Virus record (IMG/VR): IMGVR_UViG_3300010429_000979
Coordinates: 1 to 64,000 of that record
Source: a virus
Lineage: Duplodnaviria > Caudoviricetes
DNA length: 64,000 nt
Reading direction: 5' to 3' (one strand)
Below the pieces are notes generated by a model, which worked only from the letters and a program-made list of their open reading frames with translations, was not told where the DNA came from and did not search any database. Shown here one piece after another: positions 5,978 through 42,380 of the stretch (position 1 is its first letter; every line of letters begins with the position of its first letter). The position numbers were made by a program, and so were the translations under genes.

Positions 5978-6322
5978 TTAGTTTCTCCTTATAGCATTCC
6001 AGACCAGGATATTGGGAGTTAGCCTTTTACGATAAATGGTTAAGTAGGCCGTTACAACTCCATTATCAATAACTGCAAATCCCGGCATATAAGCCAAAGT
6101 ATTGGATTTAAAGATTTCATAATAGCGGAAAGAATAGGCCCCATTGGCATCCTTAACGATAGTGGAATCGATAGAGTGAGAAGTATCACTTACCAATAAC
6201 AATACACTAACCGTATCTGGTGGTTGTGGTAATGGAGCTGCACTGTTTGCGGCAACTGGAGTTTGGGAAAAGGCAATGAATGCCATTAATGCGAAAGCAA
6301 TTGTAATAGATATTCTCTTCAT
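5978..6322 (-). CDS. secreted protein with Sec signal peptide, 114 aa
   Basis: MKRISITIAFALMAFIAFS|QTP: n/h/c regions with Gln at +1. Confidence 0.7.
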   Translation of the reverse strand: MKRISITIAFALMAFIAFSQTPVAANSAAPLPQPPDTVSVLLLVSDTSHSIDSTIVKDANGAYSFRYYEIFKSNTLAYMPGFAVIDNGVVTAYLTIYRKRLTPNILVWNAIRRN

Positions 6323-26730: not shown

Positions 26731-27437
26731 CGATACAACAACTCATTAATCAAATAAAACTCTTTGGTTTAGAGATCCTCGGTAGGTATTACTCAGTCTA
26801 TCGTGGCTTTGTTGTAAGTAACGAAGACTCATTAAACATGGGTAGGATATTGGTTATTGCTCCTTCAATCTTTGGCAAGAGATCCAATCCTCTTTGGGCA
26901 TACCCAAAAAACGTTCCCAGCGGAAGCAATTATGGTATTCAGTGGCTACCTAAGAATGGTGAAATGGTATTCCTTGAGTTTGAATTTGGTGATCCAAAAT
27001 TCCCAATCTGGTCTCATGGCTATCACCTCAAGGATGAACTTCCTATAGAATTCACAGATAAGAATGACATCCTTCTTAAAACACCATCCGGACATCTCAT
27101 TCATATTAAGGAAGTCCCAACAGATAAGAATGGTGAAGAGAACCCAGATTATGGTTTCCTCATCAAACATAAAGATGGGATGACCCTCGAGATCAAAAAA
27201 GATGGTATATATCTTAATGGTAGCGAAAACAAGGGATTGGTAAAGATCACAGAACTCGTTGATAAGTTTAATCTCATCGAAGAGTGGATCCAACAATTTG
27301 CCATAGATTATAATGCACATACCCACCCAGTACCATCATTAGGGACTTCAAGTCCTATCCTTCCAATTAACCAAATCACAGATACTCCAGTAAAGACTGA
27401 GATTGAAGATTTGGAAAATTCCAATATCAAACACTAA
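26724..27437 (+). CDS. baseplate spike (gp5/gpV OB-fold)
   Basis: YRGFVVSNED...GRI, LPKNGEMVFLEFEFGDP..PIW, distal HTH (His-Thr-His) metal motif. Confidence 0.85.
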   Translation: MVTIQQLINQIKLFGLEILGRYYSVYRGFVVSNEDSLNMGRILVIAPSIFGKRSNPLWAYPKNVPSGSNYGIQWLPKNGEMVFLEFEFGDPKFPIWSHGYHLKDELPIEFTDKNDILLKTPSGHLIHIKEVPTDKNGEENPDYGFLIKHKDGMTLEIKKDGIYLNGSENKGLVKITELVDKFNLIEEWIQQFAIDYNAHTHPVPSLGTSSPILPINQITDTPVKTEIEDLENSNIKH

Positions 27438-27820
27438 TGGAGAACTCAGGATTAATATTAGGAGAAGGCATCACTTTCCCATTCAACTTAATTAATGGTA
27501 AGGTGGCTGTTGATAGTTCAAATGTTTGTATTGCTTCCTCGATCGTTAATATCTTGGGTTGGCCTACTGGAGATCGGTTATTCCAAAACCATTTCGGATC
27601 TAAATTATTCCATCTCCTGAGTGAACCAAACGATGAAATTACAGCCACTCTAGCAAAGCACTTTATTATTGACGCATTAGAATTACATGAAAAGCGTATT
27701 CGTCTACTAGACGTGAAATTTAGCATCGAAAAAGCACATGAATTAACAATAGTTTTAATATACGAACTTTTATCAACTGGTAAAGTTATGACCTTACCGT
27801 TAACTATAACAAACCTATAA
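27437..27820 (+). CDS. baseplate wedge protein gp25/W-like
   Basis: TGDRLFQNHFGS and HEKRI motifs. Confidence 0.85.
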   Translation: MENSGLILGEGITFPFNLINGKVAVDSSNVCIASSIVNILGWPTGDRLFQNHFGSKLFHLLSEPNDEITATLAKHFIIDALELHEKRIRLLDVKFSIEKAHELTIVLIYELLSTGKVMTLPLTITNL

Positions 27821-27821
27821 C

Positions 27822-29558
27822 ATGGCCAAGATAAATAATCCTTGGGTAAATTACGTTACTCGGTCTTTTTCTGATATAAAATCATCAGTACTGAACAGGG
27901 TAAAAACCCAATGCCCGGAAATAACAGACCTCAGTGATTCAAACATCCTCGTTATCATCATCAGTATCTTTGCAGGTATTGCTGAGATGTTGAATTACTA
28001 CATTGACAACATGGCAAGGGAATCTTACATTGGCTCTGCTAGAAGGCTCTCTTCAATCCTTAAGATTGTCAGGCTGATCAATTACAAAGTAAAATCCTCA
28101 ATCGCTGCTAGCTCTGACCTAACACTAAGTCTGGTTGGGGAAGATGGTAATCCAGTTGAAACCCAGTCACAGATAACTATCCCACTTGAAACCGTATTCT
28201 CAACTGCCTCGGGGTTAGTCTTTATCTCAACTGAGTCAGCCACTATTGAGATAGGGGAAACAGGTACAACAGTTAAGGTAAAACAACATACATTAGCAAG
28301 CCTCCAACTAATCGGTACAGGAAACGGTACTGCATTCCAATCAATCTACCTGCCTTCAGATTATGAACATGGCTCATGTGTAATTACTATAGACAGCGTA
28401 ACCTGGACATACCGGGATTTCTTAGATGTCTCTGGGCCAACAGATAAGCATTACACCACAGAGGTTGATGATTATGGTTTAGCATATATCAAATTTGGAG
28501 ATGGTGTTAACGGTCTTAAGCCCGATACAGGCCTAAGTATTTATCTTACCTACTACCGTACTTCAGGAGCATCTGGTAATTCAAACATAGATACGATCAC
28601 CAGTATCGATTCCAATATTGCAATACCTAATCAGACTCCCGTTATTTCAGAGATACTGGCTACTAACCATATCGCTGCTTCAGGTGGCAGGGATACTGAA
28701 GGGTTAGAGGTTATTAGGAAGTTAGCCCCACTCAGTCTAAGGACATTGAACAGGGCAGTAACTCGTCAGGATTATATTGACATAGCTAAGTTGGCTCCAG
28801 GAGTCGATAAGGCCAGCCTCTATTTCGAATGTGGTAAGAAGGTAGAGGTATACATAGCCCCGATGGGTGGAGGTGTTGCTTCTATCCAGCTATGTAATGA
28901 CACTAATGATTTCATCGATGAGAAGAAGATGGTTACTACTTTCGTATCAGTTCTTCCTACTGGTGAAACTTATATTGGTATGTCAATCTCAGTAACTGGC
29001 AAATTCCGGGTACCATCTATCCTTATCGAACAGGACATCATCACTGAATTAACTCAGGCCTATTCCTATGTCAACAGTGATATCAATAAACCAGTAAGAA
29101 CATCAGACATCATTGCATTGGTTGATAACTTGGAGAAGATCGATTTCCTTGAACTGACAGAGATATATCAGATACCCTATGCAAGGCCTAAGGTTCAAAC
29201 CTTACAGGAATTGGTATGGGAAAGAAAAGTAATGACTGGCTCAACCGATACTCATGAGTGGAGGTTAGTTTTTCAAGAAGAGCCAGTCTATGGCGATAGT
29301 TATTTCAGAGTATACCGGGATAAGGTCTGGAAGAAAAACCTGGCATTCGGTGATTGGTATGACCCCGCCCCAACATCTTTCACTGAATTGAATTTCCTAA
29401 TCCTTGCTGCTGATAACGCTGGCTTAGAGAATGGGGATACCTGGTTATTTAAAACTTACCCCTATAACAAGGACTTAGTCCTTACGGATTTCACTGTACC
29501 CATTATCAGGTCACAGGATATCATTTTGACAATCACTGAACAAAACTACATCGTCTAA
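27822..29558 (+). CDS. baseplate J / gp6-like wedge protein
   Basis: FGDGVNGLKP, GASGN, RAVTRQDY motifs. Confidence 0.85.
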   Translation: MAKINNPWVNYVTRSFSDIKSSVLNRVKTQCPEITDLSDSNILVIIISIFAGIAEMLNYYIDNMARESYIGSARRLSSILKIVRLINYKVKSSIAASSDLTLSLVGEDGNPVETQSQITIPLETVFSTASGLVFISTESATIEIGETGTTVKVKQHTLASLQLIGTGNGTAFQSIYLPSDYEHGSCVITIDSVTWTYRDFLDVSGPTDKHYTTEVDDYGLAYIKFGDGVNGLKPDTGLSIYLTYYRTSGASGNSNIDTITSIDSNIAIPNQTPVISEILATNHIAASGGRDTEGLEVIRKLAPLSLRTLNRAVTRQDYIDIAKLAPGVDKASLYFECGKKVEVYIAPMGGGVASIQLCNDTNDFIDEKKMVTTFVSVLPTGETYIGMSISVTGKFRVPSILIEQDIITELTQAYSYVNSDINKPVRTSDIIALVDNLEKIDFLELTEIYQIPYARPKVQTLQELVWERKVMTGSTDTHEWRLVFQEEPVYGDSYFRVYRDKVWKKNLAFGDWYDPAPTSFTELNFLILAADNAGLENGDTWLFKTYPYNKDLVLTDFTVPIIRSQDIILTITEQNYIV

Positions 29559-30238
29559 TGGTTAATTTCACAAATTGGATATTCGATAGGTTTCCTCGGA
29601 GATTTAAAATCGAAGACTCTTATAAGGATGCCGATGGTAAAGGTCTCCTAGAAAGGATGATGGGTGTGATTGGTGATGAACTCGATGAAGAGATTATACC
29701 ACTCATTGAAGATTACCAAGTCCAACAAAACCCAATCACTTGCGATAGTAAGTTCATTAACCTTATCGCATTCTTTTATGGGAATCCTCCAAGTCCATTA
29801 TCATACGAAGACCTATATAGGAAACTTCTGAGCAAGATAACAGAGGTCAATAAGATCAAAGGAACTGAAGCCTCATACGTTCTGTTCTTTAAACTTATTG
29901 GCCTTGATGTTGCTGTAAGGGAAGTACCATTGGTTGATTACAGATATGACAAGGATAACATTAGGTATGATAATAATGAACACCTAAGGTATGATATGAA
30001 CTGCCCACCTTGTTCTGGTTACTATCTAGACATCCTAGACCATGATAACCTTTACCCAGAGTTCATCCACAACCCAATCGATCCAGAAATCTTTAAGCTC
30101 TTGATGTCCATGATACGGTATTGCGAACCTATCAATGCTAGACTAATTGAGGTAACTTATGATGACACACCATTATACCTTGGAGGTAGCTATGATATCG
30201 ATTATTCATTCAGCTATGACAGGATAAGAAGAAGATAA
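29558..30238 (+). CDS. baseplate wedge protein (P2 gpI-like)
   Basis: Follows the J-like gene; YRKLL...KIKGT pattern. Confidence 0.7.
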   Translation: MVNFTNWIFDRFPRRFKIEDSYKDADGKGLLERMMGVIGDELDEEIIPLIEDYQVQQNPITCDSKFINLIAFFYGNPPSPLSYEDLYRKLLSKITEVNKIKGTEASYVLFFKLIGLDVAVREVPLVDYRYDKDNIRYDNNEHLRYDMNCPPCSGYYLDILDHDNLYPEFIHNPIDPEIFKLLMSMIRYCEPINARLIEVTYDDTPLYLGGSYDIDYSFSYDRIRRR

Positions 30239-30239
30239 T

Positions 30240-31238
30240 ATGGCAAGGACACTAGACCAAAAATTCGCGGAATTAACTCTACTGATCAATAGTATCCTTG
30301 TTGTAAATGAGACTGGCGATATTACCCCACCACGTCACAAATCGATAGTAAACAATTTTAAGGAACTCGTTCAGTGGTTAAAGGTATCTGAGAACTTAGA
30401 TGCAGCAGATTACGTTCAAGAAACAGAAATTGAGTGGAGTCGGTTAATCGTAGGGTTCACATTAGATAATGGTCATGTCTGTGAAAATGATGAGACAGTG
30501 TTACTCACAAACCAAACCAATCTCACAGAGAATGGTATCTGGCAAGTTCGGGTAGCAGGAGAACCAACCAGGCCTACTAACTTCACACCACTAGCCGACC
30601 AAGATGGTTGCATGGTGCTGATAACCAAAAACATTGGAGAAGATAACTTTCTCTTTAAGATTCAGGTATCTGGTTATAAGGTACTTGTTTTCCCCTTAAT
30701 CTGGTCATCAGGAGTAGGTCACTTACAGAATACAGATGTCTACTTAAATTACGGGGGTATCTTCCAAGTCTCTGCTCAAGAGATCTGGGAACATATCCAT
30801 TCAACCATGTCACCTCAGGAAATCGATATCACGGATTTAACTGAGATTGACCTTACCCCATACCCAGACGCAAGATACTTCCTACTCTATTCAACAAATG
30901 AACAGGAAATTATCAGTAGCGTTATTGATAGTAACTCATCAGAGGGAAAACAAATAACCCTGAAGCCAAGAGATAATGGTTTATGGGTAATACTAAGGGA
31001 GGCTCTTGCAGAAGATACGCCTCTCAAACTTCTCACTGGAGTGGATTTCATTATGAAGGAGAAATCACATTACAGTGAATTCAGATTTACGAACGAGGCC
31101 TGGTCACAAGCTGCTGGACTCGGGATTAGAGATATAGTTATGATCGGGGAGAATTGGAGAATGCGTGATGTTAATGGTGCAATGGTTATAGAGAAATACG
31201 ATAATGGTGATTGGGTTGAAATGTCAAATTTAAGTTAA
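30240..31238 (+). CDS. tail-fibre-proximal structural protein, 332 aa (no signal peptide)
   Basis: VLLTNQTNLTENGIWQV motif seen in phage fibre proteins; lies between baseplate and giant gene. Confidence 0.55.
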   Translation: MARTLDQKFAELTLLINSILVVNETGDITPPRHKSIVNNFKELVQWLKVSENLDAADYVQETEIEWSRLIVGFTLDNGHVCENDETVLLTNQTNLTENGIWQVRVAGEPTRPTNFTPLADQDGCMVLITKNIGEDNFLFKIQVSGYKVLVFPLIWSSGVGHLQNTDVYLNYGGIFQVSAQEIWEHIHSTMSPQEIDITDLTEIDLTPYPDARYFLLYSTNEQEIISSVIDSNSSEGKQITLKPRDNGLWVILREALAEDTPLKLLTGVDFIMKEKSHYSEFRFTNEAWSQAAGLGIRDIVMIGENWRMRDVNGAMVIEKYDNGDWVEMSNLS

Positions 31239-31239
31239 T

Positions 31240-34200
31240 ATGAGAAAAATATTTTTCCTTATCTTATTCCTAGTACCTCTCCTGAGCTACTCCCAATATT
31301 ATAAAGTAACCAGAAACCTCAATTCAGATGCGGGGTTTGTTGGTGTTAATACGAACACTGGCGATGGTGCTTCAGAAACGATAATGCTCATAAGAGATAC
31401 AGATACAATGTATATGAGGATGGGTAAAGATTCATCATATATCTTTACCGAGAAGCCACTGTATTTCTTCGGAGAGTATTTACAGATACAGCAGGACTTC
31501 GTCCTTAAGAAGTTTGCTTCTTCAGATACAATGGTCCTGATTGTTAAACCAAATGGATATGTAGATACGATTAGTTTAACCAACCTATTCAATAGCGAAT
31601 CTGGTACAGGAGGTATCTTTATATCATACTGTGATGGTTGTACTCCAGATACTGGATTTATCTTTCTCGGAGATACCCTTATTATAGATACTGCCGGCGG
31701 GTACTGTGAATCATTCATCAGGAACGATACCCTATTCTCTTGTGACACTACAGTGATAGGGGCTACAGGATATTGGGCTAAGTATGATGGTATGTATCTC
31801 ACTCCTAAACAAGGAGAGAATGTGGTAATTGGATCATCAGAGAAACGGCCCAGATCAAAGCTTAATGTTAATGGTGGTGTATTCGTAAGGAAATCAGTAC
31901 ACTCTTATGGAGGATCAGGTGATGTTACCAGTAGTGGCGTTGGATCTGTTAATGCTGCAGATGCCCTAATTATCTCGAGATGGGTTAATGGCAGTATACC
32001 TTGGAACGATAGTTTATATGAGGCTGATGCTTCCGGGAATAATATCATCACGTACAATGAGGTTATTGGTCCTATGTTATTTTTTACTGGTCAGATACCA
32101 GACCTTAAAGCTTGGGCCAGATGGGTAGAGGCTAATTCAGTACAACAGTTCAGAGACAGTACTACCTATATCTATAAGGGCCTTACAATCAGTCCAGCTA
32201 AAAGGGGATATACCCAAGCCACGAGTTACGGAAACTCTGGCCTTTACGTTGATGGGAAAGTCTGGTTACCCACAGTAGGCCAAACAATAAAATTCGATAG
32301 TATCTATGTCCAAGATACTTCTGGTAAAGTAATGACAGTACACAAGAGCCTAGTAGCCCAAGCTAATGGTATAGATAGTTTATATATTGGATTCTGTAAT
32401 GGCTGTACTCCTGACTCAGGTTGGTATTATAATGGCGACTCATTAATCATTGATACAGTAGATAGGTACTGTCCCACGTATTATGCCAATGATACCCTAT
32501 ATGGTTGCGATACAGTAGCTCTTTCAATGAACGGATACTGGGTAAAGGCCGGAGATCTACTATTCCCCTATCAACCCCAATTAGCCGTTCGGATTGGTCC
32601 TGCGAATTATATGCCATCTGCTTCGCTATTTGTAAACTCCGTCAGTGGTACTAGCTTGATCTCACAAACGAACTCAAGTTATGGTAGCTCTGTTTCTGCA
32701 CAAAATCAAAATACCACTGGTGGTGCAGGTATAACTGCTGGGGGTTATATAGGTGTAAGTGGTGGTACCACAAGTAATACTGGTTTAGGGGGATACTTTA
32801 CAAATTGGCAACCAGAACCCAGTCGGCCAGTAGTAGAGATACATTCTAACGGTGGTAAGGGCTTATTCTTTAATTTGGCTAATTCTGGCTCATACCCAAT
32901 CTCAGGTGAAGGTATCTTATTACAAAGGGGGGCAACTGGGACAAACACAATTTCCGGAACGGGTTTTAAAATAAAACAAGTTAATATTGATAATCCCCTG
33001 AATGTGACTGGTTACATGTCAGAATATTATAAGGGGAACACCAGAGTTTCATCAGTTGACGTGAATGGAAATACTTATGCAAGAGGAACCATGAAGGTGG
33101 GGAATATGCCTATCCTATCTGGTACAACTGATACAGCAGTAGTCTGGGATTATAATGACAGCACATATAAACTTAGGAAGGTCGCCGGTGGTACTGTTGG
33201 GGCATTAACTTATGCTGACACACTTACTGATATCGCTACACAATATGATTTAACACAAGTAATCAGTATCGAATCAGACCCAATCTGGATTTCAGATAGC
33301 ATTGATTACCTGCATAAATCAGATACAAATACCAAGGTGTCAAGCCGTTACTGGGTTAATAACCAGGGATTCCTGAAAGTAGAAGGTGATGCTTCTGTAT
33401 CTAATGAAGGTTCTTTGAATGTCATTACCACTAACACCTATCCATCAATCAACAGTAACACCTCTGGAAGTACACCAATCGAGATAAGGAATGGTCCAGC
33501 TGTAGGATTAACATGGAACAACCCCGGTAATTATATTAAGATAGATATCGATACCACTAACATTATCCTTTCAAAACAGCTAGCATCTAGAACATATCAG
33601 AAAATTACTGACACATCTACGAAGGATGCCACAAGGTATTGGGTAGGACAACAAGGATTCTTAGTTAGCGAGGTTGATGGCTCTACCTCAAATGAGATCC
33701 AGAACCTTTCATATAACTCATCAACTCATGCCATCGATATCGATAAAGCAGGGACTTCTGCTATTATACCATTAGCCACAACATCAAATAGCGGATTGCT
33801 TACATCGGCTCAAGCTACTATCCTATATAGCGATAGTATAAAGTGGGCTGCTAAAAAGGATTATGGATTTGCTGATGTAACAGAAACCACGATCTCATTC
33901 AATGATGCTACCCATATCTTTACTCTTGCACCAGTCAGTACCACATGGACCTATATGAGAGCAGGTAAGGTATATACGATTACTGGAAGTAAGACAGTTA
34001 ACCTTGATGATTCACCAGGGGGATTGGTTAATGGCTCAACCTACTTCATTATCATCGACAATACAACAGGAACTCTTACAGCCTCAACAGATGCCTGGAC
34101 ACTAGCAGATACCAAAGTTCCGGTAGCTACGATCAGATGGCATGGTGGACGCTATCCTAAATACTTTCTAGCAGAGGAAAGGCATCAAGCTGGATTCGGT

Positions 34201-37200
34201 AGGATGGTACATAGGAACCTTCACTTCACCAGGGGGGCTCAGATGGTATCCGGGGGATTGGTTGCTGATGCTATTGTTAGTGGTACAACGAATGATGATA
34301 ACACAATTAGCATAACCGATGCTACTATAGCTGATGAGGATTTATTTATTCTTGCAACGTCATTACCTGATGGTGATGGTGCTGGAGGTGACTATCTTAC
34401 CATGTATCATAATGGTGGTAGTTGGACATGGGACACTACGGATATGCCCTATAAGTTTGCTGCTGGTGGATATATCTATTACGATAACGGAACTGATAGT
34501 GTAGTAGGGGGTAATAACAAATTCTATAACTCATATCTTGCTATCACTGACTGGGTAGGACAAGGCAGGCATATCATCTTTCTAGGTCGTGGAGAATTCA
34601 ATTCGGCCACTGCAGCATATTCAGAGAACCCCTTTAACTTTGATTGGACCGGTATACCTATTCAGGAAATCGTTACCATTTATCAGATGACCTGGGAAAG
34701 TGGTAATGCCTACACTACAAAGGGTAAGGTAAGACTTACTAGATTACCTCAAAGGTTATTCGGAACGATCTCTACTACTGTGGGGAGTACACCAACCGTA
34801 GTTGCCAATACTCCACTCTATGGAAATGGTAGCACGGGATCACCATTAAGTATCGATACATTATCTGGACAAGGAGTTGCAACACAATACGATCTTGCTA
34901 TCCACACACAACCCATAAGCAGGGTTACTGGTTTGCAGGATAGTTTAACTCGCATCCATGATACTATCGATAACTATATCCCAAAATATATCGTTGACGC
35001 AGCTGGCGATTTAGTCGTGGGAACGGGGAATAATACCATCAAGAGGTTAGCAAGAGGCTCAGCTGATCAGGTCCTCAAGGTTAATGCGGGTGGTACTGAT
35101 ATAGAGTGGGGAGCTGCAGCAGCTTCAATGGTTTATCCGGGAGCGGGTATACCAGTAAGTACTGGGTCAGCATGGACCACCTCGATAACCAATAACTCCG
35201 CAAATTGGAATACCGCATACGGTTGGGGAAACCATGCGTCAGCAGGTTATGATAACAGTGTTACCAATGAGGGTAGCTTATCTGTAGGTTCGGGAACTGG
35301 CTCAACAAGTGTAATAAACAGTAACACAAGTAGCAGTACCGGGATAACTTTGACAGCCGGAACCGGTTTAGGTATTGCAGAAAATGTTGGAGCATATTCC
35401 ATAACACTGACCAATACCAGCCCAGACAAAACAGTTAGCTTAACAAATGGTACTGCTATAAGTATCACCGGTACATACCCAAGTTTTACAATTAATAACT
35501 CTAGCCCTGACCAAATCGTTGCCCTGACTAACGGTACTGGTATAAGCATTACCGGTACTTATCCAAATTTTACTGTAACAAACCTTGTCCCAGACAGTTC
35601 ATCTAAATATATTCCTAAATATGTGATAGACGCTGCAGGAGATCTGATAGTTGGTACCGGGAATAATACCTTAAATAGGTTGGCTAAAGGAAATGCTCTG
35701 CAAATCCTAAGAGTCAATTCTGGAGGTACAGCATTGGAATGGGCTGATGTTGCAGCAGGTGGGGTAACATCAGTATCTGGAACATCACCAGTAGTATCAT
35801 CAGGGGGGAATACTCCAGCCATCTCGATCAATTCAGATACCCTCACATCCTGGAGAGGGAAACAGAATCATGGGGAAACTGCTTATGGTTGGGGAAATTG
35901 GGCAGGACATACCCAAGCCATCTCAACAGTAAGAGGGTTGCAGGATAGTTTAACGGATAAGATCAATAGTATCAATGATATTGGTACTGGCCCAGGAAAG
36001 GTATTCCATTCTGAATCCGGTGGAAATGTTTACCTACGTTCAATCTATGGAGGAACTGGTATAGCTGTTGTTAATATGCCAAACTATATCGAGGTATATA
36101 ATAATGGGGTAACAGGTTTATCAGGAACATCGCCTATCGCTGTCAGTGCCAGTACTGGATCTATCGCTGTTTCGATCAAGGCTGATACCTTGACTTCCTG
36201 GAGAGGAAAACAAAACCACGGAGAGACGGCATTTGGCTGGGGTAATCATGCAAGTGCAGGATATTTAACATCACAAACATCTCATACAGATGTGGTAGTG
36301 GATGGAGACTTTACCTCAGAGGGGCTAATGAAAAGGGGAGCTAGTGGAGGTACTTATTCAATCGTAACTGATAACTCTGCTAACTGGAATACAGCATACG
36401 GCTGGGGAAATTGGGCAGGTCATACCCAAGCTATATCCACTGTGACAGGTTTACAAGATAGCCTTACCCGTATCCATGATACCATTGATAATTATATCCC
36501 GAAACATATCATCGATGCTGCAGGCGATTTAATCGTGGGATCATCTAATAATGTCCCAGTAAAACTAGCTAAGGGTAATGCATTACAAACTCTTAGAGTA
36601 AATTCTGGTGGGACTGCTCTAGAGTGGGCTGATCCAAAACAGTACTGGACACTGGGAGGTAATGTAGTCTCATTAGATCCGAACTACGAATTAGAGATGG
36701 TCAATTCGGCACAGGGTACTTCACTGGTACGTATCAGTAATGATGTTGCCTCAGTTGAAGATGGCGGACATTCCAGAGGGCTTCAAATAGAGATACCAGC
36801 AGATAACACCCAAAGAACCTTTACATACATACGATACGGTTTATATATTAGTAACTTAGCTGAGAAGAACCATCAAGTTGGTATTTACAATACCTCACAA
36901 CTTAGCCCCACTTCGACCAATTACGTGGGGTATCAGGGATACATAGCTGGTCAGAATGGAAGAACTATGCTACTTACAGGTGGCTCTCCAACATTCGAAG
37001 TATCAAATGCCCCGTATACTGCCGCAAAGATAAGTGGTCACCTTAACTTCAGTTATGCAGGAGGAGGAGGAGCTTCAACATTTGATAGCGTCTGGGTGAA
37101 ATCAACAGTATCTCCGTATAACACTTACCTTGTCCATAAATCATTGATAGGTACTGGTAGTGGGTTAGCTTGGTCAGATACCTTAACTAAGATTGCTACG

Positions 37201-39504
37201 GCCTATGATCTAAGTCAAATATCTACTTCAGGAGTTCCAGCAGATAGTATTCCATTAATTAGGAACTCCGCCAGAGGAGTTTCCTATCTCCGCAATATCA
37301 ATGATAGTGTAGGATTGGGTACCATAACTCCGCAGGCAAGGTTAGACGTTAATGGTTGGTTAAAGGTAAGGAAAGTTCCAGTAGCCTCCACAGCTGATAG
37401 TATGCTGACAATAGAGAATGGAATTTTTAAATCAATCAACTACCTTAATCTTGGTTTTGTATTTTCTAATCAACTATATAGTGCAAGATGTGCTAATGTC
37501 CCCAAGTTCTACCACAACCTCATGCATAACAAACTGTTTCGTGGTGGTGATAGGTTTTCTACTTCTTTTTCTGGTATGGGTTCAACAAGTGCAGCATACT
37601 TATTTGATGGATTCCACGAAAGATATAGTAATAATACTATTTCTGCTAATGCTACAGGAGTAATTACAACTAACTTATCCACATATTCTGAGTATAATGC
37701 CAGTAATGGTATTATTTATCCTCAAGGTAGATTTGTTATGAATTTTTATTTTCCAGATGGAGTTAATGATGTTGCTCCACAAAGAGTTAAAATAGAAATG
37801 TATAAATCAGGTGGGGTAAATCAATGGATGACAGTTGCTGACACAAATAATATCCCTGCAACTACTGCTATACTAGACCTTTGGTATTGGGGTGGTGGAA
37901 ATTATGTTACTCAAATAAAATGGACTATCTATGGTAGAACATCTGGAACTGTAAGACTTGAAGAGTTAGAATATTACCCACATAGGGATGCAGATGACTT
38001 AAATAAAACACCAACAGTAAATAAATACACCGATCAATCATTATACGGTACTTGGACATGGCGTGGAAGTTCTAATACTGCGAATACTTCTTTTGGTGCA
38101 AATCCAGGATATACAACCAACTCCTTTGTAGTGGGAAATAGCACTGGAACAGGTAGATTACATGTAAAAGGTGCAGGTAATACCTCATCTACATGGACAT
38201 CACAATTCCATAATTCAGCAGGAAATAACAATGCCTTTATGATTAGGGATGATGGTTACATAGGTATTGGTACTGCTTCTCCTACAAGTTTCTTGCACAT
38301 GATTAAAACTAATCCTGCAACAGGAAATTTTTATGGTGGGTTTATTGATATTACCTCAGCAGGAACTACAGGTGAACAATCAGGGTTATCTATAGCCATG
38401 AAAGCTGGAGCAACAGGTAATACAATTGCAACTTATGGTTTTGGTGCTTCAAATAACTCAACATCAAGTGGGAATAGCTTAACGAATGGACAAGATGGAT
38501 ATTCAATGAGAGCGGGTTATGCTAATTTAGGTGGATATGCTTATGCCATAGGAACAAACACAGGTCAGAATTATGGTGGAGAATTCTTTGCAGGAAATGC
38601 AAGTAGAAACATAGGCTCATTCAATTCTGCAACAGTAGCCAAAGCATCTGCTACTAATATTGGTACATTCTCAGTAGCCAGGAATACTAATGCTACTTCA
38701 ACTGTTCAAATAGGCGGATACTTCACATTACTTGATTCTAATGCTATGCCAACCTTTGAATCAGCAGCCTTGATAGCAGATAATGCAGGAACCACTTCAC
38801 CCATATTCTTGGCAAGGGATAGAGGAACTACAGTATTCTCAATTAATGATGGTGGAGGGGTAGTGGCTGGCGGCAAGTCAATAATTTTAGGGAATACTGG
38901 GACAACGAGATTTAACATACTTAGCTCAGGTGGTTATCCAAGACTTGAATCCACAAAAACTGATGGTACCATAACAACCCAATGGATAACAGATCCAGCA
39001 GCCGGGAGATCAATCTTTGATTACTCTTACACATTACATGGAGCCAATACTGGATTCGCTATTCGATCAACCATTAATGATGATAATGCAACGGTATTTT
39101 CCGTAAGGGATTCAGATGGTGATATGGTATTATCTAATGGCGGTTATATAAATGCTAAAGGATACCTGGTTGCAGAGAAGACTTTCACTTACGATGGCCT
39201 TAATTCAAATACGATATCTGCCAGTGCCTGTACCGTTGATTGGACTAGTGGCAACCTTCAATCAGTCACACTGAACTCGAATGTAACTTTTACCTTCACA
39301 GCCCCTACAGGACCATCACATCTAACATTGAAGATAACTCATGCTGCCAATACCACTACCTATACTACTACATGGCCTGCTTCAGTTAAATGGCCAGGAG
39401 GTACAGCCTATGCTTCCACTTCAACTTCAGGTGCAGTGGATATCATTACATTCTTTTACGATGGGACTAACTATTATGCTATGCCTTCCAACGATTTTAA
39501 ATAA
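31240..39504 (+). CDS. giant (2754 aa) tail-fibre-like protein with an N-terminal Sec signal peptide
   Basis: Fibre position; S/T/G/N-rich with internal repeats; C-terminal VDWTSGN...TWPASVKWPGG...DIITFFYDG domain typical of phage fibres; N-terminus MRKIFFLILFLVPLLSYS|Q. Confidence 0.7.
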   Translation: MRKIFFLILFLVPLLSYSQYYKVTRNLNSDAGFVGVNTNTGDGASETIMLIRDTDTMYMRMGKDSSYIFTEKPLYFFGEYLQIQQDFVLKKFASSDTMVLIVKPNGYVDTISLTNLFNSESGTGGIFISYCDGCTPDTGFIFLGDTLIIDTAGGYCESFIRNDTLFSCDTTVIGATGYWAKYDGMYLTPKQGENVVIGSSEKRPRSKLNVNGGVFVRKSVHSYGGSGDVTSSGVGSVNAADALIISRWVNGSIPWNDSLYEADASGNNIITYNEVIGPMLFFTGQIPDLKAWARWVEANSVQQFRDSTTYIYKGLTISPAKRGYTQATSYGNSGLYVDGKVWLPTVGQTIKFDSIYVQDTSGKVMTVHKSLVAQANGIDSLYIGFCNGCTPDSGWYYNGDSLIIDTVDRYCPTYYANDTLYGCDTVALSMNGYWVKAGDLLFPYQPQLAVRIGPANYMPSASLFVNSVSGTSLISQTNSSYGSSVSAQNQNTTGGAGITAGGYIGVSGGTTSNTGLGGYFTNWQPEPSRPVVEIHSNGGKGLFFNLANSGSYPISGEGILLQRGATGTNTISGTGFKIKQVNIDNPLNVTGYMSEYYKGNTRVSSVDVNGNTYARGTMKVGNMPILSGTTDTAVVWDYNDSTYKLRKVAGGTVGALTYADTLTDIATQYDLTQVISIESDPIWISDSIDYLHKSDTNTKVSSRYWVNNQGFLKVEGDASVSNEGSLNVITTNTYPSINSNTSGSTPIEIRNGPAVGLTWNNPGNYIKIDIDTTNIILSKQLASRTYQKITDTSTKDATRYWVGQQGFLVSEVDGSTSNEIQNLSYNSSTHAIDIDKAGTSAIIPLATTSNSGLLTSAQATILYSDSIKWAAKKDYGFADVTETTISFNDATHIFTLAPVSTTWTYMRAGKVYTITGSKTVNLDDSPGGLVNGSTYFIIIDNTTGTLTASTDAWTLADTKVPVATIRWHGGRYPKYFLAEERHQAGFGRMVHRNLHFTRGAQMVSGGLVADAIVSGTTNDDNTISITDATIADEDLFILATSLPDGDGAGGDYLTMYHNGGSWTWDTTDMPYKFAAGGYIYYDNGTDSVVGGNNKFYNSYLAITDWVGQGRHIIFLGRGEFNSATAAYSENPFNFDWTGIPIQEIVTIYQMTWESGNAYTTKGKVRLTRLPQRLFGTISTTVGSTPTVVANTPLYGNGSTGSPLSIDTLSGQGVATQYDLAIHTQPISRVTGLQDSLTRIHDTIDNYIPKYIVDAAGDLVVGTGNNTIKRLARGSADQVLKVNAGGTDIEWGAAAASMVYPGAGIPVSTGSAWTTSITNNSANWNTAYGWGNHASAGYDNSVTNEGSLSVGSGTGSTSVINSNTSSSTGITLTAGTGLGIAENVGAYSITLTNTSPDKTVSLTNGTAISITGTYPSFTINNSSPDQIVALTNGTGISITGTYPNFTVTNLVPDSSSKYIPKYVIDAAGDLIVGTGNNTLNRLAKGNALQILRVNSGGTALEWADVAAGGVTSVSGTSPVVSSGGNTPAISINSDTLTSWRGKQNHGETAYGWGNWAGHTQAISTVRGLQDSLTDKINSINDIGTGPGKVFHSESGGNVYLRSIYGGTGIAVVNMPNYIEVYNNGVTGLSGTSPIAVSASTGSIAVSIKADTLTSWRGKQNHGETAFGWGNHASAGYLTSQTSHTDVVVDGDFTSEGLMKRGASGGTYSIVTDNSANWNTAYGWGNWAGHTQAISTVTGLQDSLTRIHDTIDNYIPKHIIDAAGDLIVGSSNNVPVKLAKGNALQTLRVNSGGTALEWADPKQYWTLGGNVVSLDPNYELEMVNSAQGTSLVRISNDVASVEDGGHSRGLQIEIPADNTQRTFTYIRYGLYISNLAEKNHQVGIYNTSQLSPTSTNYVGYQGYIAGQNGRTMLLTGGSPTFEVSNAPYTAAKISGHLNFSYAGGGGASTFDSVWVKSTVSPYNTYLVHKSLIGTGSGLAWSDTLTKIATAYDLSQISTSGVPADSIPLIRNSARGVSYLRNINDSVGLGTITPQARLDVNGWLKVRKVPVASTADSMLTIENGIFKSINYLNLGFVFSNQLYSARCANVPKFYHNLMHNKLFRGGDRFSTSFSGMGSTSAAYLFDGFHERYSNNTISANATGVITTNLSTYSEYNASNGIIYPQGRFVMNFYFPDGVNDVAPQRVKIEMYKSGGVNQWMTVADTNNIPATTAILDLWYWGGGNYVTQIKWTIYGRTSGTVRLEELEYYPHRDADDLNKTPTVNKYTDQSLYGTWTWRGSSNTANTSFGANPGYTTNSFVVGNSTGTGRLHVKGAGNTSSTWTSQFHNSAGNNNAFMIRDDGYIGIGTASPTSFLHMIKTNPATGNFYGGFIDITSAGTTGEQSGLSIAMKAGATGNTIATYGFGASNNSTSSGNSLTNGQDGYSMRAGYANLGGYAYAIGTNTGQNYGGEFFAGNASRNIGSFNSATVAKASATNIGTFSVARNTNATSTVQIGGYFTLLDSNAMPTFESAALIADNAGTTSPIFLARDRGTTVFSINDGGGVVAGGKSIILGNTGTTRFNILSSGGYPRLESTKTDGTITTQWITDPAAGRSIFDYSYTLHGANTGFAIRSTINDDNATVFSVRDSDGDMVLSNGGYINAKGYLVAEKTFTYDGLNSNTISASACTVDWTSGNLQSVTLNSNVTFTFTAPTGPSHLTLKITHAANTTTYTTTWPASVKWPGGTAYASTSTSGAVDIITFFYDGTNYYAMPSNDFK

Positions 39505-40100
39505 TGAGATACCTACTTTCACTTCTTCTCTTTCTTAGCCTAACTGCATCTGGCCAGTTATACCAAAGTGGAAATCCCACTCAGTCAGTCGACGATGCAG
39601 GCTTCGGTCAATATGCCTGGTCAGGAAATTTCAACGATGGCTTTTATTCTGCAAATTGTACCATATCAACTGAATCATCTACATATACCCATCGGTTAAT
39701 CCTAACTCATACGGATATCGCTATTCCTGCTGGGGCTATCATAAAGGGTGTAGAAGTAACAACCTATGTCCAGGCTTTTCAGTTTGGTCACATCACTGAA
39801 AACTGTAGTGATATCTGCTGTTATAGTTACACAGTAGCCCTGACTTCTCCAGGATTCCTTACCTATAAAACTGGAGTTGGTTTTATACCAGGAGATTACA
39901 CAGAGCAGATCTACGGTGGTCCTACAGATTTATGGAGCATTTCTATGAATCACAACGACATCAACAGCGATGACTTTGGTATTTACTTTATTGCTCAGAC
40001 CAAATCATACCAAGGATTTAACGCTTCAGTAAGACTCTGGGGAGCAACGATAAAAGTATACTACGAATTACCAAAAACAAATATATTCTTTGGACGCTAA
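39504..40100 (+). CDS. secreted beta-rich accessory protein, 198 aa
   Basis: Signal peptide MRYLLSLLLFLSLTASG|Q; IPAGAIIKGVEV...YGGPTDLW motif; 1-nt overlap with the giant gene. Confidence 0.7.
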   Translation: MRYLLSLLLFLSLTASGQLYQSGNPTQSVDDAGFGQYAWSGNFNDGFYSANCTISTESSTYTHRLILTHTDIAIPAGAIIKGVEVTTYVQAFQFGHITENCSDICCYSYTVALTSPGFLTYKTGVGFIPGDYTEQIYGGPTDLWSISMNHNDINSDDFGIYFIAQTKSYQGFNASVRLWGATIKVYYELPKTNIFFGR

Positions 40101-40111
40101 TAAATAAAAAC

Positions 40112-40537
40112 ATGAAAAAGACAATCCTTATCATCATGATTATCCTCGCTGGGTTCTCAGTGAATGCCCAGTATTCAATTCAGAAAGTGACCTTGTATGA
40201 TACCACAAGAGCTGATGGTCAACGATTCATCATCTCATATCCTGAGAAGAATCTCGTAATCCATTTACAGGACAGCTGCTTGGGTACAGACTATAACCCT
40301 TTCAATGCCTGTGCTGTCCCAAGTGGTTATATCAGCCTTCAAAATTCTAGGGTCGATGTTGTTATGAAAAAGGTTAGGATCCTAGCTGGTGACACTTTAA
40401 TCAGGTATGAAACTATAACCATTCCATTGTCTCGATTAGAAAATAAGACGGGCCAATTTATAGACAACTCACTTATGAAAAAAGCCTTAAAGCCAACAGC
40501 TAAGGGATGGATAAAAAGAAAGTTAAGCGAAGAATAA
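40112..40537 (+). CDS. secreted protein, 141 aa
   Basis: Signal peptide MKKTILIIMIILAGFSVNA|Q. Confidence 0.7.
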   Translation: MKKTILIIMIILAGFSVNAQYSIQKVTLYDTTRADGQRFIISYPEKNLVIHLQDSCLGTDYNPFNACAVPSGYISLQNSRVDVVMKKVRILAGDTLIRYETITIPLSRLENKTGQFIDNSLMKKALKPTAKGWIKRKLSEE

Positions 40538-40579: not shown

Positions 40580-40987
40580 ATGGATTCAACGATATCAACT
40601 GCACTGGAAAAAGTCGATAAGATCGAGGAAACATTAAAAAGCTTCCGTACCCTATTCACTGCTTTTGAACCTGGGTTTATCAAGATGGCAGATGATAACT
40701 CAAGGAAAGCTTTTGGCCTTATGACCAAAAGAGATGACTATGAAATCTATGAATTGGATATTGAGAAGGACTTCTGCACAATCCATCATGCTCACAAATT
40801 AGCCTACGAACTTCACTTAGTCATTCATGGCAAAGTTAATATCAAACAAGATGGCCATGATAACATCCTTTCAACTGGTCAATCGCTAACCACTTCCAAG
40901 GGTCTACTCCATACGTTCATTGCGTTGGAAGACACGAAAATAGTTACCATCGCAGTCCCAACCTTAAACGAAAAACATGGAGATTAA
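40580..40987 (+). CDS. cupin-fold protein
   Basis: HHAH...ELHLVIHGKV...GQS...KGLLHTFIA cupin motifs 1 and 2. Confidence 0.75.
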   Translation: MDSTISTALEKVDKIEETLKSFRTLFTAFEPGFIKMADDNSRKAFGLMTKRDDYEIYELDIEKDFCTIHHAHKLAYELHLVIHGKVNIKQDGHDNILSTGQSLTTSKGLLHTFIALEDTKIVTIAVPTLNEKHGD

Positions 40988-41246: not shown

Positions 41247-41534
41247 ATGAAAAGATTCCTTTTTGCATTAACCTTACTCCTGTCGATCATGGTATTACCA
41301 TTGTTCACTATCGCACAGGCAGTAGTCGACACCTCCGCCATTAGCCCTGCACCATCGCAAGGGGCTTCTATATTGGATTGGATCTACTGGTCAGCAATCA
41401 TCATTGCCACTGTCATCTACCCGATTCTCGTTCGACTTATCCCCACTTCGAAGAACTGGGACTGGATCTCTGGCATTATGAGATTATTATCTTGGCTGGT
41501 ACCAAACAATAAAAAAGGCGGAGGTAAACACTAA
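41247..41534 (+). CDS. putative holin (signal peptide plus TM)
   Basis: Two hydrophobic segments, basic C-tail NKKGGGKH, directly before the endolysin. Confidence 0.55.
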   Translation: MKRFLFALTLLLSIMVLPLFTIAQAVVDTSAISPAPSQGASILDWIYWSAIIIATVIYPILVRLIPTSKNWDWISGIMRLLSWLVPNNKKGGGKH

Positions 41535-41956
41535 TGGCCGAAAGCCTAATTCTCGTCGAAAGGTTTCTCAAGAGCGATCAACAAACTCTTGGGAAACTTT
41601 CCGTTATAAATAGTGGACAAGTCACCTTCACATGCCTAACCCAAGAATTACCTTGGAAGGATAATCAACAAAGGATTTCCTGCATACCAATTGGCAATTA
41701 CAGGTATGGTAAAAACAAAGCCTCAACGAAAGTCAAATATCCTCATGTGGATATCTATGATGTCCCGAACAGGGGAGGGGTAAAGATTCATGCAGGTAAC
41801 TACGTAACACAGATCTTAGGTTGCATCGAGGTTGGGAAAGAGCATCTGGATATTAATAAGGATGGTCTCAACGATGTCACTGAAAGTAGGGTAACTCTTA
41901 AGGCATTACTAAAACATTTAACTCCAACCGGCTCAATCCAAATCAGTGAAACCTAA
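41534..41956 (+). CDS. endolysin candidate, DUF5675 (L,D-transpeptidase-like fold)
   Basis: TLGKL...CLTQELPW.DN...SCIP.G.Y...VKIHAGN...LGCIEVG. Confidence 0.8.
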   Translation: MAESLILVERFLKSDQQTLGKLSVINSGQVTFTCLTQELPWKDNQQRISCIPIGNYRYGKNKASTKVKYPHVDIYDVPNRGGVKIHAGNYVTQILGCIEVGKEHLDINKDGLNDVTESRVTLKALLKHLTPTGSIQISET

Positions 41957-42380
41957 AGACGCAATCACCATACTGAAGGGAGCACCATATATCCCTTACA
42001 TCATAATCCTGGTTCTCCTTCTCATTATTGGATTCAGAGAATCAAGTAGCACCCACTACTTCAACCAACTCATTGGAGAGAAACAGAAAGAGATCGATAG
42101 CCTATTCAATGAGAATAAGAAACTCCAAGACTCTACCCTATTCTGGGAATATCGATCAGTAGAATTCCAAGAAGGTATCATCGAAAGGGAAAAACAAATT
42201 GCACTCCTCAGAAAACAAATCTGGATAATAAATAAAAAACATGAAGCAAGTATCCATTCTCTTACTTATCTTAACGATAACGATCAGGTTAAGTTTTTCA
42301 CAAACTACGTCACCAAGTACATACAGTCAGCTGGATACTCTGGTGACAGTGAATATGAAACTAATCCGAGGGGCAAATGA
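41946..42380 (+). CDS. i-spanin-like protein
   Basis: N-terminal TM then a long coiled coil; follows the endolysin. Confidence 0.65.
   Translation: MKPKDAITILKGAPYIPYIIILVLLLIIGFRESSSTHYFNQLIGEKQKEIDSLFNENKKLQDSTLFWEYRSVEFQEGIIEREKQIALLRKQIWIINKKHEASIHSLTYLNDNDQVKFFTNYVTKYIQSAGYSGDSEYETNPRGK

Follow-up and report, generated by a model that had tools for sequence, protein, structure and literature searches.

A giant tail-fibre gene with a predicted export leader and an excess of Bacteroidota O-glycosylation motifs in a contractile-tailed phage

Introduction

Tailed-phage morphogenesis is described as cytoplasmic. Could a tail fibre nevertheless be exported from the bacterial cytoplasm and glycosylated by the host before it reaches the virion? 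This question is raised by a giant gene at positions 31240..39504 (plus strand; product of 2754 amino acids (aa), named P0001 here) of the window that we analyzed, i.e. the first 64 kb of the IMG/VR virus record IMGVR_UViG_3300010429_000979, a complete genome of 81,313 bp with direct terminal repeats. The gene, delimited from the list of open reading frames (ORFs) and its translation, lies directly 3' of the baseplate wedge genes and probably encodes the tail fibre of this phage, whose tail is contractile. Twelve contigs, originating from several samples, encode a protein identical to P0001.

General O-glycosylation in the Bacteroidota is periplasmic and motif-driven, is near-complete at common motifs and acts on foreign proteins that bear the motif, and its sequon is enriched in the non-cytoplasmic proteins of these bacteria (PMC12871550), DSL and DTL being the most used motifs (PMC8550257). 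A first-pass annotation of the sequence had proposed that the fibre is exported and borrows this host system, and had suggested comparing its sequons with shuffled sequences and with non-exported fibre homologues. In our reading, to which we give a probability of about 0.5, P0001 is the fibre of a Bacteroidota phage that would be exported, glycosylated by the host and joined to the virion at or after lysis. Export itself, glycosylation, the host phylum and the joining at or after lysis are what we infer from the comparisons presented below.

Sequon content of the fibre

The sequon was defined as D-(S/T)-(A/I/L/V/M/T), i.e. D[ST][AILVMT]. An exact recount agreed with the numbers that the first-pass annotation had obtained by eye: P0001 contains exactly 36 sequons, all within aa 1-2055, where 36 of the 46 D-S/T dipeptides thus belong to a sequon, and 15 of them lie in the first ~430 aa; the counts given for comparison, 3 in PolA and 4 in the sheath protein, were also recovered. 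The last sequon is located at aa 2053 (nucleotides 37396-37404), position 37404 being its last base and not the end of the gene. When 5000 composition-preserving shuffles were taken as the null, aa 1-2055 possessed 36 sequons for a shuffle mean of 9.9 (standard deviation 3.0, z 8.8), and 0 of the 5000 shuffles reached 36. For aa 1-430, 15 sequons were observed for 2.0 expected (z 9.6). Duplicated sequence, comprising two four-cysteine (Cys4) modules, a threefold repeat (aa 1197-1800) and other, shorter repeats, inflates the count; with the extra repeat copies (second and third) masked, 24 sequons remained for 7.1 expected (z 6.6), with a maximum of 17 among 5000 shuffles. The excess was absent from the other proteins of the phage, as the 55 other ORFs of the window contained 51 sequons for 50.2 expected and the remaining 17 kb contained 13 for 11.2, i.e. 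64 observed for 61 expected when all were pooled, which is the chance level. On enrichment over shuffled sequences, the earlier proposal is therefore borne out.

The sequon excess is specific to Asp. The ratio of observed to expected motifs in the fibre was 3.63 for D[ST][AILVMT], compared to 1.08 for E[ST] followed by a hydrophobic residue, 1.42 for N[ST] followed by a hydrophobic residue, 0.91 for the reversed motif (hydrophobic residue, [ST], D) and 0.66 for D[ST] followed by a non-allowed residue. Asp was followed by Ser or Thr in 46 of 118 cases (background 0.21, p 8e-6) and D-S/T by an allowed residue in 36 of 46 (background 0.36, p 6e-9), with Leu as the commonest third residue (14 of 46). 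Using the broader published motif, 42 sites were found in the fibre instead of the 36 strict ones. A cause at the DNA level (GANTC sites or codon bias) was considered and rejected, the codons being diverse and GANTC occurring in 1 of the 36 motifs. The C-terminal 699 aa (37405..39501, plus strand) are sequon-free, with 0 observed for 2.7 expected, and their three D-S/T dipeptides are DTN, DSN and DSD; this absence is suggestive and is not significant by itself.

Export leaders of the phage

The fibre starts with a predicted Sec/signal peptidase I (SPI) signal peptide, MRKIFFLILFLVPLLSYS (31240..31293, plus strand), for which cleavage is predicted before Gln19. Its N-terminus, MRKIFFLILFLVPLLSYS/QYYKV, exhibits a basic n-region, a strongly hydrophobic core of 12 residues, small amino acids at positions -1 and -3, an S-Y-S/Q site and Gln at +1. 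Exposure of Gln by SPI, known as the Q-rule, is a feature of the Bacteroidota and not of related phyla (PMC5837995). At the level of the leader, the export claimed at first pass is in line with what is present, a predicted leader of the classical Sec/SPI type that places Gln at +1; leader calls were made by inspection of the sequence and from recurrence.

All four predicted cleavable leaders in the phage expose Gln. Besides the fibre, they belong to a 198-aa protein without family match (39504..40100, plus strand; leader MRYLLSLLLFLSLTASG/Q), a 141-aa protein (40112..40537, plus strand; leader MKKTILIIMIILAGFSVNA/Q; 2 sequons for 0.4 expected) and a 114-aa early-region protein (5978-6322, minus strand; leader MKRISITIAFALMAFIAFS/Q, with the end AFIAFS/Q; 2 sequons for 0.4 expected). 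The fibre has neither a lipoprotein Cys nor a C-terminal domain of the type IX secretion system (T9SS), so that the cleaved fibre would be periplasmic.

Comparison across homologues

An exhaustive phmmer search with aa 1-1200 returned 1322 clusters of metagenomic proteins, nearly all of them matching a central domain of ~320 residues (aa 870-1190). Among the matches listed, 149 homologues of similar build formed the comparison set: 7 with a Q-rule leader, 2 with a leader lacking Gln and 140 without leader. Five of the seven homologues with a Q-rule leader were enriched in sequons, with observed/expected ratios of 2.2-4.2 (P0002, 25/8.1; P0003, 21/5.1; P0007, 39/12.0; P0033, 17/7.8; P0087, 13/3.1). 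No enrichment was detected in the two homologues whose leaders lack Gln, and the median ratio of the 140 leaderless homologues was 0.72 (Mann-Whitney p 8e-5). The only leaderless homologue with a ratio above 2 was P0036 (2.31), whose sequence starts inside the shared domain and which may be truncated. For 14 further leaderless homologues from IMG/VR, the ratios ranged from 0.0 to 1.6.

The excess in the homologues sits outside the shared domain (67 sequons for 18.1 expected). Two of the enriched proteins have a module in common with P0001, namely the Cys module in P0002 and a repeat in P0007. For P0003, P0033 and P0087, BLAST gave no match of the enriched N-terminal region to P0001 or among the three proteins, and at least three of the enrichments are therefore independent of shared ancestry. 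In the comparison with non-exported fibre homologues that had been suggested at first pass, the excess thus tracked the leaders, with five of seven leader-bearing proteins enriched compared to a leaderless median below 1. Overall, export of the fibre and selection for the motif appear well supported by these sequence comparisons.

Leader-bearing tail proteins in other phages

Three of the leader-bearing homologues sit in the tail modules of other phages. In one contig (L007, with a siphovirus-type tail module), the tape measure gene is followed by four genes and then by a leader-bearing fibre of 1605 aa ending in Peptidase_S74, after which come two further leader-bearing proteins, one of them matching a minor tail protein family. 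At the end of this contig lies an integrase that matches PF13102 and, weakly, PF17293, families that we take to be typical of the Bacteroidota. In another contig (L006), the tape measure and two genes precede a 1806-aa leader-bearing tailspike with 39 sequons for 12 expected. Compared to GenBank phages, P0007 matched only a common tailspike domain. The leaderless tail proteins encoded in the same contigs as the leader-bearing homologues had sequons at or below chance.

Among cultured phages, gp085, gp086 and gp087 of Cellulophaga phage phi18:3 (NC_021794.1; L035:32891-38583) are annotated 'based on experimental MS/MS proteomics analysis', MS/MS standing for tandem mass spectrometry. They carry Q-rule leaders (MKNKITIIMILMSISFGYS/Q, MKKTIYILSILLLTISGVSA/Q and MKHTFSIVLFFILSIGLNA/Q, respectively) and match PHROGs for virion structural protein, tail protein, tail fiber protein and pectate lyase. 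These three proteins provide the only experimental hint that leader-bearing proteins may reach virions. In Flavobacterium phage immuto, the fibres and spikes are leaderless and their sequons are at chance. In MT121964.1, a related gut phage, the fibre is leaderless, measures 636 aa and contains 2 sequons for 3.0 expected, i.e. chance level, so that this phage has a different fibre module.

Several Q-rule proteins were also observed in other contexts. In immuto (L013:10527-15868), five of them lie outside the tail module, some annotated with a C-type lectin or cohesin domain, and show no sequon excess. In L008:7355-15799, six of seven adjacent proteins have leaders ending in Gln, and the run contains 45 sequons for 12.2 expected; it adjoins a 3791-aa protein with InPase and RadC domains, and 0 of the 6 run members scanned match a PHROG. 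At L002:1146-3788, and also in L003 and L004 (all IMG/VR phage contigs), a 671-aa Q-rule protein is followed by a 204-aa Q-rule protein. The former has a 59-residue stretch in common with fibre aa 2297-2355, 61% identical and containing SSTWT.QFHNSAGNNNAFMIRDDG. The 198-aa neighbour of the fibre was considered as a relative of the 204-aa protein, and the two are unrelated.

Fibre architecture and central domain

The sequon-rich N-terminus contains two Cys4 modules, identified by self-comparison and alignment: the first at aa 116-226 (31585..31917, plus strand; Cys 131, 134, 156 and 168) and the second at aa 371-484 (32350..32691, plus strand; Cys 386, 389, 411 and 423), each with 4 sequons. 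In the alignment of all three copies, including that of P0002, the four Cys and three D-T-x sites are invariant, and the spacing C-x2-C-x21-C-x11-C is the same in both N-terminal modules. This spacing fits disulfides formed outside the cytoplasm, zinc binding being equally possible. A repeat region with ISDSIDY and SDT motifs (aa 642-820; 33163..33699, plus strand) is common to the leader-bearing tailspike P0007. Behind the central domain, self-comparison revealed the threefold repeat region (aa 1197-1800; 34828..36639, plus strand), across which the sequons LQDSLT, HDTIDN and DTLTS are kept, and the first-pass remark that many sequons occupy conserved repeat positions is accurate.

Within the sequon-free C-terminus, aa 2646-2744 match the tail-fibre family phrog_9017 (E 1e-5), and the tip also matches a protein annotated as 'putative tail fiber' in MW202476.1; among GenBank phages, the whole fibre matched one record, at the tip alone. 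No Pfam family was found in the whole fibre at E 0.1, nor any C-terminal sorting domain of T9SS cargo (Por_Secre_tail or type B). The T9SS sorting domain PF18962 had no match in the genome, but the controls were equally silent, so this result is uninformative alone. For the N-terminal 700 aa, the exhaustive phmmer search identified the phage proteins P0002 and P0007 only. Word-indexed searches with aa 1-700 (proteins of near lengths) and aa 100-500 (shorter lengths) found no homologue of the sequon-rich N-terminus, and alignment scans of IMG/VR and JGI metagenomes with the Cys module gave no match.

The conserved central domain (aa 870-1190; 33847..34809, plus strand) contains 2 sequons for 1.9 expected. 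An AlphaFold2 model of this domain, built from 28 sequences, had a pLDDT (predicted local distance difference test) of 91. Foldseek searches against the PDB returned low template-modelling scores only, the best being 0.32 to phi812 baseplate chains. With VIA-align, the N-terminal half of the domain (model residues 1-121) matched the receptor-binding protein (RBP) of lactococcal phage 1358 (4l92_A, Z 6.9), Mtd (1yu0_A, 6.8), TssK (6n38_A, 6.5), the tail fibre of cyanophage A-1(L) (8kec_A, 6.1), the HFTV1 tail fibre (9h5b_BG, 5.9) and the phage p2 RBP (2wzp_A, 5.4), these Z values of 5.4-6.9 being too low to trust alone. The matches share one theme, weak but consistent, namely the baseplate-docking 'shoulder' of RBPs. 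Many leaderless homologues have the start of the domain close to their N-terminus, and in the leader-bearing ones it starts between residues 175 and 876, after a long sequon-rich extension. We infer that the fibre docks via its central domain and that the first ~870 residues form an added glycan-bearing arm. The domain also contains invariant residues (E111, H113, H126, D163 and D165, domain numbering), and these Glu, His and Asp could form a metal or catalytic site. No tblastn match to the central domain was found in 50,697 GenBank phage records, and a scan of genome contigs retrieved two contigs of metagenome-assembled genomes only, assigned to Saccharibacteria and Anaerolineales.

Gene neighbourhood and host

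Upstream of the fibre, at 27437..31238 (plus strand), lie leaderless baseplate genes encoding a gp25-like protein (127 aa; PHROGs 261/43), a gp6/J-like protein (578 aa; PHROGs 219/6) and two small proteins of 226 and 332 aa; pooled, they contain 2 sequons for 5.0 expected. The fibre module is followed by a gene for a Cupin_2 protein (40580-40987), one for a DUF5675 protein (41534-41956, 84 bits) and, overlapping the DUF5675 gene, one for a membrane protein (41946-42380). The latter two genes may form a lysis cassette; DUF5675 had no match in any control genome. The fibre gene thus occupies a tail-module position, after the gp25-like, gp6-like and two small genes and with the DUF5675 and membrane-protein genes 3' of the module, and no second large fibre candidate was found elsewhere in the complete genome. 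A search of the complete genome for glycosyltransferases of the GT1/GT2 type gave no PF00535 or PF00534 match, both controls being positive in 14 of 14 genomes and other glycosyltransferase families not being searched. As the phage has no such enzyme, any glycan would be host-supplied.

The host is probably a member of the Bacteroidota, as judged from indirect evidence. A GGAG, GAGG or AGGA motif occurs within 25 nucleotides upstream of 9 of the 50 plus-strand genes, compared to a background of 15%, i.e. there is no Shine-Dalgarno enrichment, and positions -16 to -4 upstream of the starts are A-rich and G-poor. This pattern is a known trait of the Bacteroidota and is not exclusive to them. The closest cultured relative of the large terminase is that of a Flavobacterium myophage (35% identity, 3e-88). 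Searches with the sheath, baseplate, PolA and terminase proteins led to uncultured faecal phages and distant isolates. Outside the window, the genome encodes a permuted (two-piece) transfer-messenger RNA (tmRNA) at 65642-65965 (L012:1642-1965), with the tag GNAYQMKAAA given by ARAGORN and a score of 68.4 bits to Rfam RF04321 tmRNA_permuted (gathering score 47); it provides no clear host information.

Proposed assembly route and points against it

In the route that we favour, the fibre would be translocated by Sec and cut by SPI before Gln19, following the Bacteroidota Q-rule. The host general O-glycosylation system would then modify many of the 36 sites of aa 1-2055 in the periplasm, the last 699 aa, which carry the tip, being free of the motif; given a working leader and 36 motifs, heavy glycosylation would be expected. 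The 198-aa and 141-aa proteins encoded downstream would be co-exported, probably as partners or chaperones. The fibre would meet the particle built in the cytoplasm only once the inner membrane is breached at lysis, and docking would probably take place via the central shoulder-like domain. Late fibre attachment is possible in principle, since finished T4 particles can acquire their fibres in vitro.

A wider proposal, which we put forward tentatively and hold to be rather less than an even chance, is that the assembly of some tailed phages of the Bacteroidota is divided between two compartments. The cytoplasm would be the site of head, tail and baseplate formation, and the host-recognition fibres would be exported by Sec, trimmed by SPI, capped with pyroglutamate, O-glycosylated by the host in the periplasm and joined to the particle only once lysis breaches the inner membrane, to give a virion with a host-type glycan coat.

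Several observations weigh against the favoured route. An exported fibre cannot join the particle inside the cytoplasm, and we know of no tailed phage that solves this problem. The proteins gp085-gp087 of phi18:3 could instead be exported proteins that co-purified with the virions; moreover, they are sequon-depleted (3 for 9.6 expected, Poisson p ~0.014), which means that a leader alone does not imply enrichment, and the sequon may be under selection in either direction. Two homologues with a Q-rule leader, P0083 (1/2.1) and P0108 (2/4.1), are not enriched; both are short and consist mostly of the shared domain. Many of the fibre's sequons are at conserved repeat positions, where structural constraint could hold them too. 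Finally, the host assignment is indirect, as it rests on the Q-rule leaders, the lack of Shine-Dalgarno enrichment and the Flavobacterium-phage terminase, with no CRISPR (clustered regularly interspaced short palindromic repeats) or prophage link, and the terminases of uncultured human and rat faecal phages are closer (~60%) than that of the Flavobacterium phage.

Alternative explanations

A Sec leader is hard to square with cytoplasmic tail assembly, and this difficulty would disappear if P0001 were not part of the virion. It would then be an exported and probably glycosylated protein of the periplasm or envelope, acting, for example, in superinfection block, in surface remodelling or as an adhesin, and the real RBP would be encoded elsewhere, e.g. 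by the 332-aa gene at 30240-31238. Parallels can be cited, as Q-rule proteins of unknown function in Porphyromonas gingivalis phages are read as host-surface modifiers (PMC10367356), immuto combines leaderless fibres with its separate five-protein Q-rule cluster, and Bdellovibrio places exported fibre-like proteins on its own surface (PMC10769870). Yet the gene stands at the exact myovirus fibre position, between the gp25-/gp6-like and the lysis-like genes, in a genome without further large fibre candidates; a tail-fibre PHROG is matched at its C-terminus, and its central domain is weakly shoulder-like. In addition, L006 and L007 encode no large distal tail protein other than the leader-bearing homologue, and the leader-bearing tail proteins of phi18:3 were annotated from virion MS/MS data. 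We regard a non-virion role as unlikely, while giving it serious weight.

Improbable, in our view, is that the N-terminal stretch is not an export signal, because of a wrong start or because it is a structural or membrane-tethering element, which would leave a cytoplasmic and unglycosylated fibre whose sequon excess is a structural habit of the N-terminal repeat modules. The conserved internal-repeat positions of many sequons would suit this idea, since exchanges between S and T or among I, L and V are ordinary conservative changes, and in-frame Met codons are present at residues 49-61. It is opposed by the position of the ATG at 31240, one base past the stop codon of the preceding gene, and by the recurrence of leaders with Gln at +1, which are present on seven homologues and on the products of the two neighbour genes, and also on proteins of L002-L004, L007 and L008 that are unrelated. 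Likewise, the enrichment occurs in mutually dissimilar N-terminal regions and only where a leader is present, the 154 leaderless relatives being at or below chance with one exception that is apparently truncated, and neither the E-S/T-hydrophobic nor the reversed motif is enriched. A fibre that is exported but whose sequons are little or not used, in a host without the system or because the fold hides the sites, appears about equally improbable to us; the excess would then have been inherited from bacterial surface-glycoprotein donors. Fibre genes are indeed mosaic, the central domain and the C-terminal tip having separate relatives here, and the motif enrichment is not seen in all species of the phylum (PMC12871550). 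However, no bacterial donor was found, as the N-terminal 700 aa match only the two phage proteins, and sites with common motifs are near fully occupied and engineered motifs become glycosylated (PMC12871550).

If an exported and host-glycosylated virion fibre is indeed what P0001 represents, maturation of a fibre in the periplasm would be a new step in phage assembly. Host range and virion stability would depend on the host glycosylation locus, and the glycans would vary with the strain of growth, which would matter for gut, oral and environmental Bacteroidota phages, for their use and for their immune recognition. A Q-rule leader together with a sequon excess on a tail gene is a simple signature, which could help to assign uncultured phages to the Bacteroidota. 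The idea is directly testable, since cultured Cellulophaga phages show leader-bearing proteins in virion preparations.

Comparison with known systems

As a tail fibre, P0001 is placed by its match to phrog_9017, by the tip shared with MW202476.1, by the presence of its central domain in the tail modules of other phages and by a weak shoulder-type alignment. Prior knowledge covers the glycosylation system and the Q-rule, together with phage Q-rule proteins whose function is unknown and the glycosylation of mycobacteriophage virions by phage-encoded enzymes. Our literature search found no report of tail fibres that bear a Sec leader and are rich in sequons, or of periplasmic fibre maturation, and the supplements of the Tannerella forsythia glycoproteome contain no mention of phage. 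To our knowledge, the listed substrates of Bacteroidota O-glycosylation do not include phage proteins.

The Q-rule proteins of P. gingivalis prophages resemble the fibre in that their leaders expose Gln, which was read as an adaptation to the Sec/SPI machinery of the host; they differ in being of unknown function and in being read as host-surface modifiers, and the terms 'tail fiber' and 'glycosyl' are absent from the main text of that paper (PMC10367356). The mosaic adhesive trimer fibres of Bdellovibrio bacteriovorus are likewise phage-fibre-like mosaic proteins that act outside the cytoplasm, but their genes are chromosomal, serve the bacterium itself, are not part of any phage tail module and are unconnected with the Bacteroidota sequon (PMC10769870).

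Closer in context, gp085-gp087 of phi18:3 have Q-rule leaders, resemble tail, tail-fibre or pectate-lyase proteins, and belong to a Bacteroidota phage in which they are encoded before the lysis genes, much as the fibre precedes lysis-like genes here. They differ in that phi18:3 is a podovirus and that the proteins are of 547-785 aa, have no sequence similarity to P0001 and are depleted in sequons. In mycobacteriophages, virion structural proteins are glycosylated by cytoplasmic glycosyltransferases that the phage encodes. Glycans on structural proteins of a tailed phage, as proposed here, would be the common point; the complete genome of our phage contains no own enzyme of the PF00535 or PF00534 families, and the route that we propose is periplasmic and host-supplied.

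With the substrates of Bacteroidota O-glycosylation, the fibre has in common a Sec-type leader (predicted here), a sequon in which Leu is favoured at the third position, an excess that is found only in proteins that are, or are predicted to be, non-cytoplasmic and the absence of a dedicated transferase in its own locus; the motif lies in soluble regions, with 36 occurrences at 3.6 times the expectation and in an Asp-specific manner. It differs from them in being the product of a phage tail-module gene, in having no T9SS C-terminal domain and in the number of sites. The most heavily glycosylated protein of T. forsythia, TfsB, has 20 predicted sites, of which 19 were detected (PMC8550257), compared to the 36 predicted sites of the fibre.

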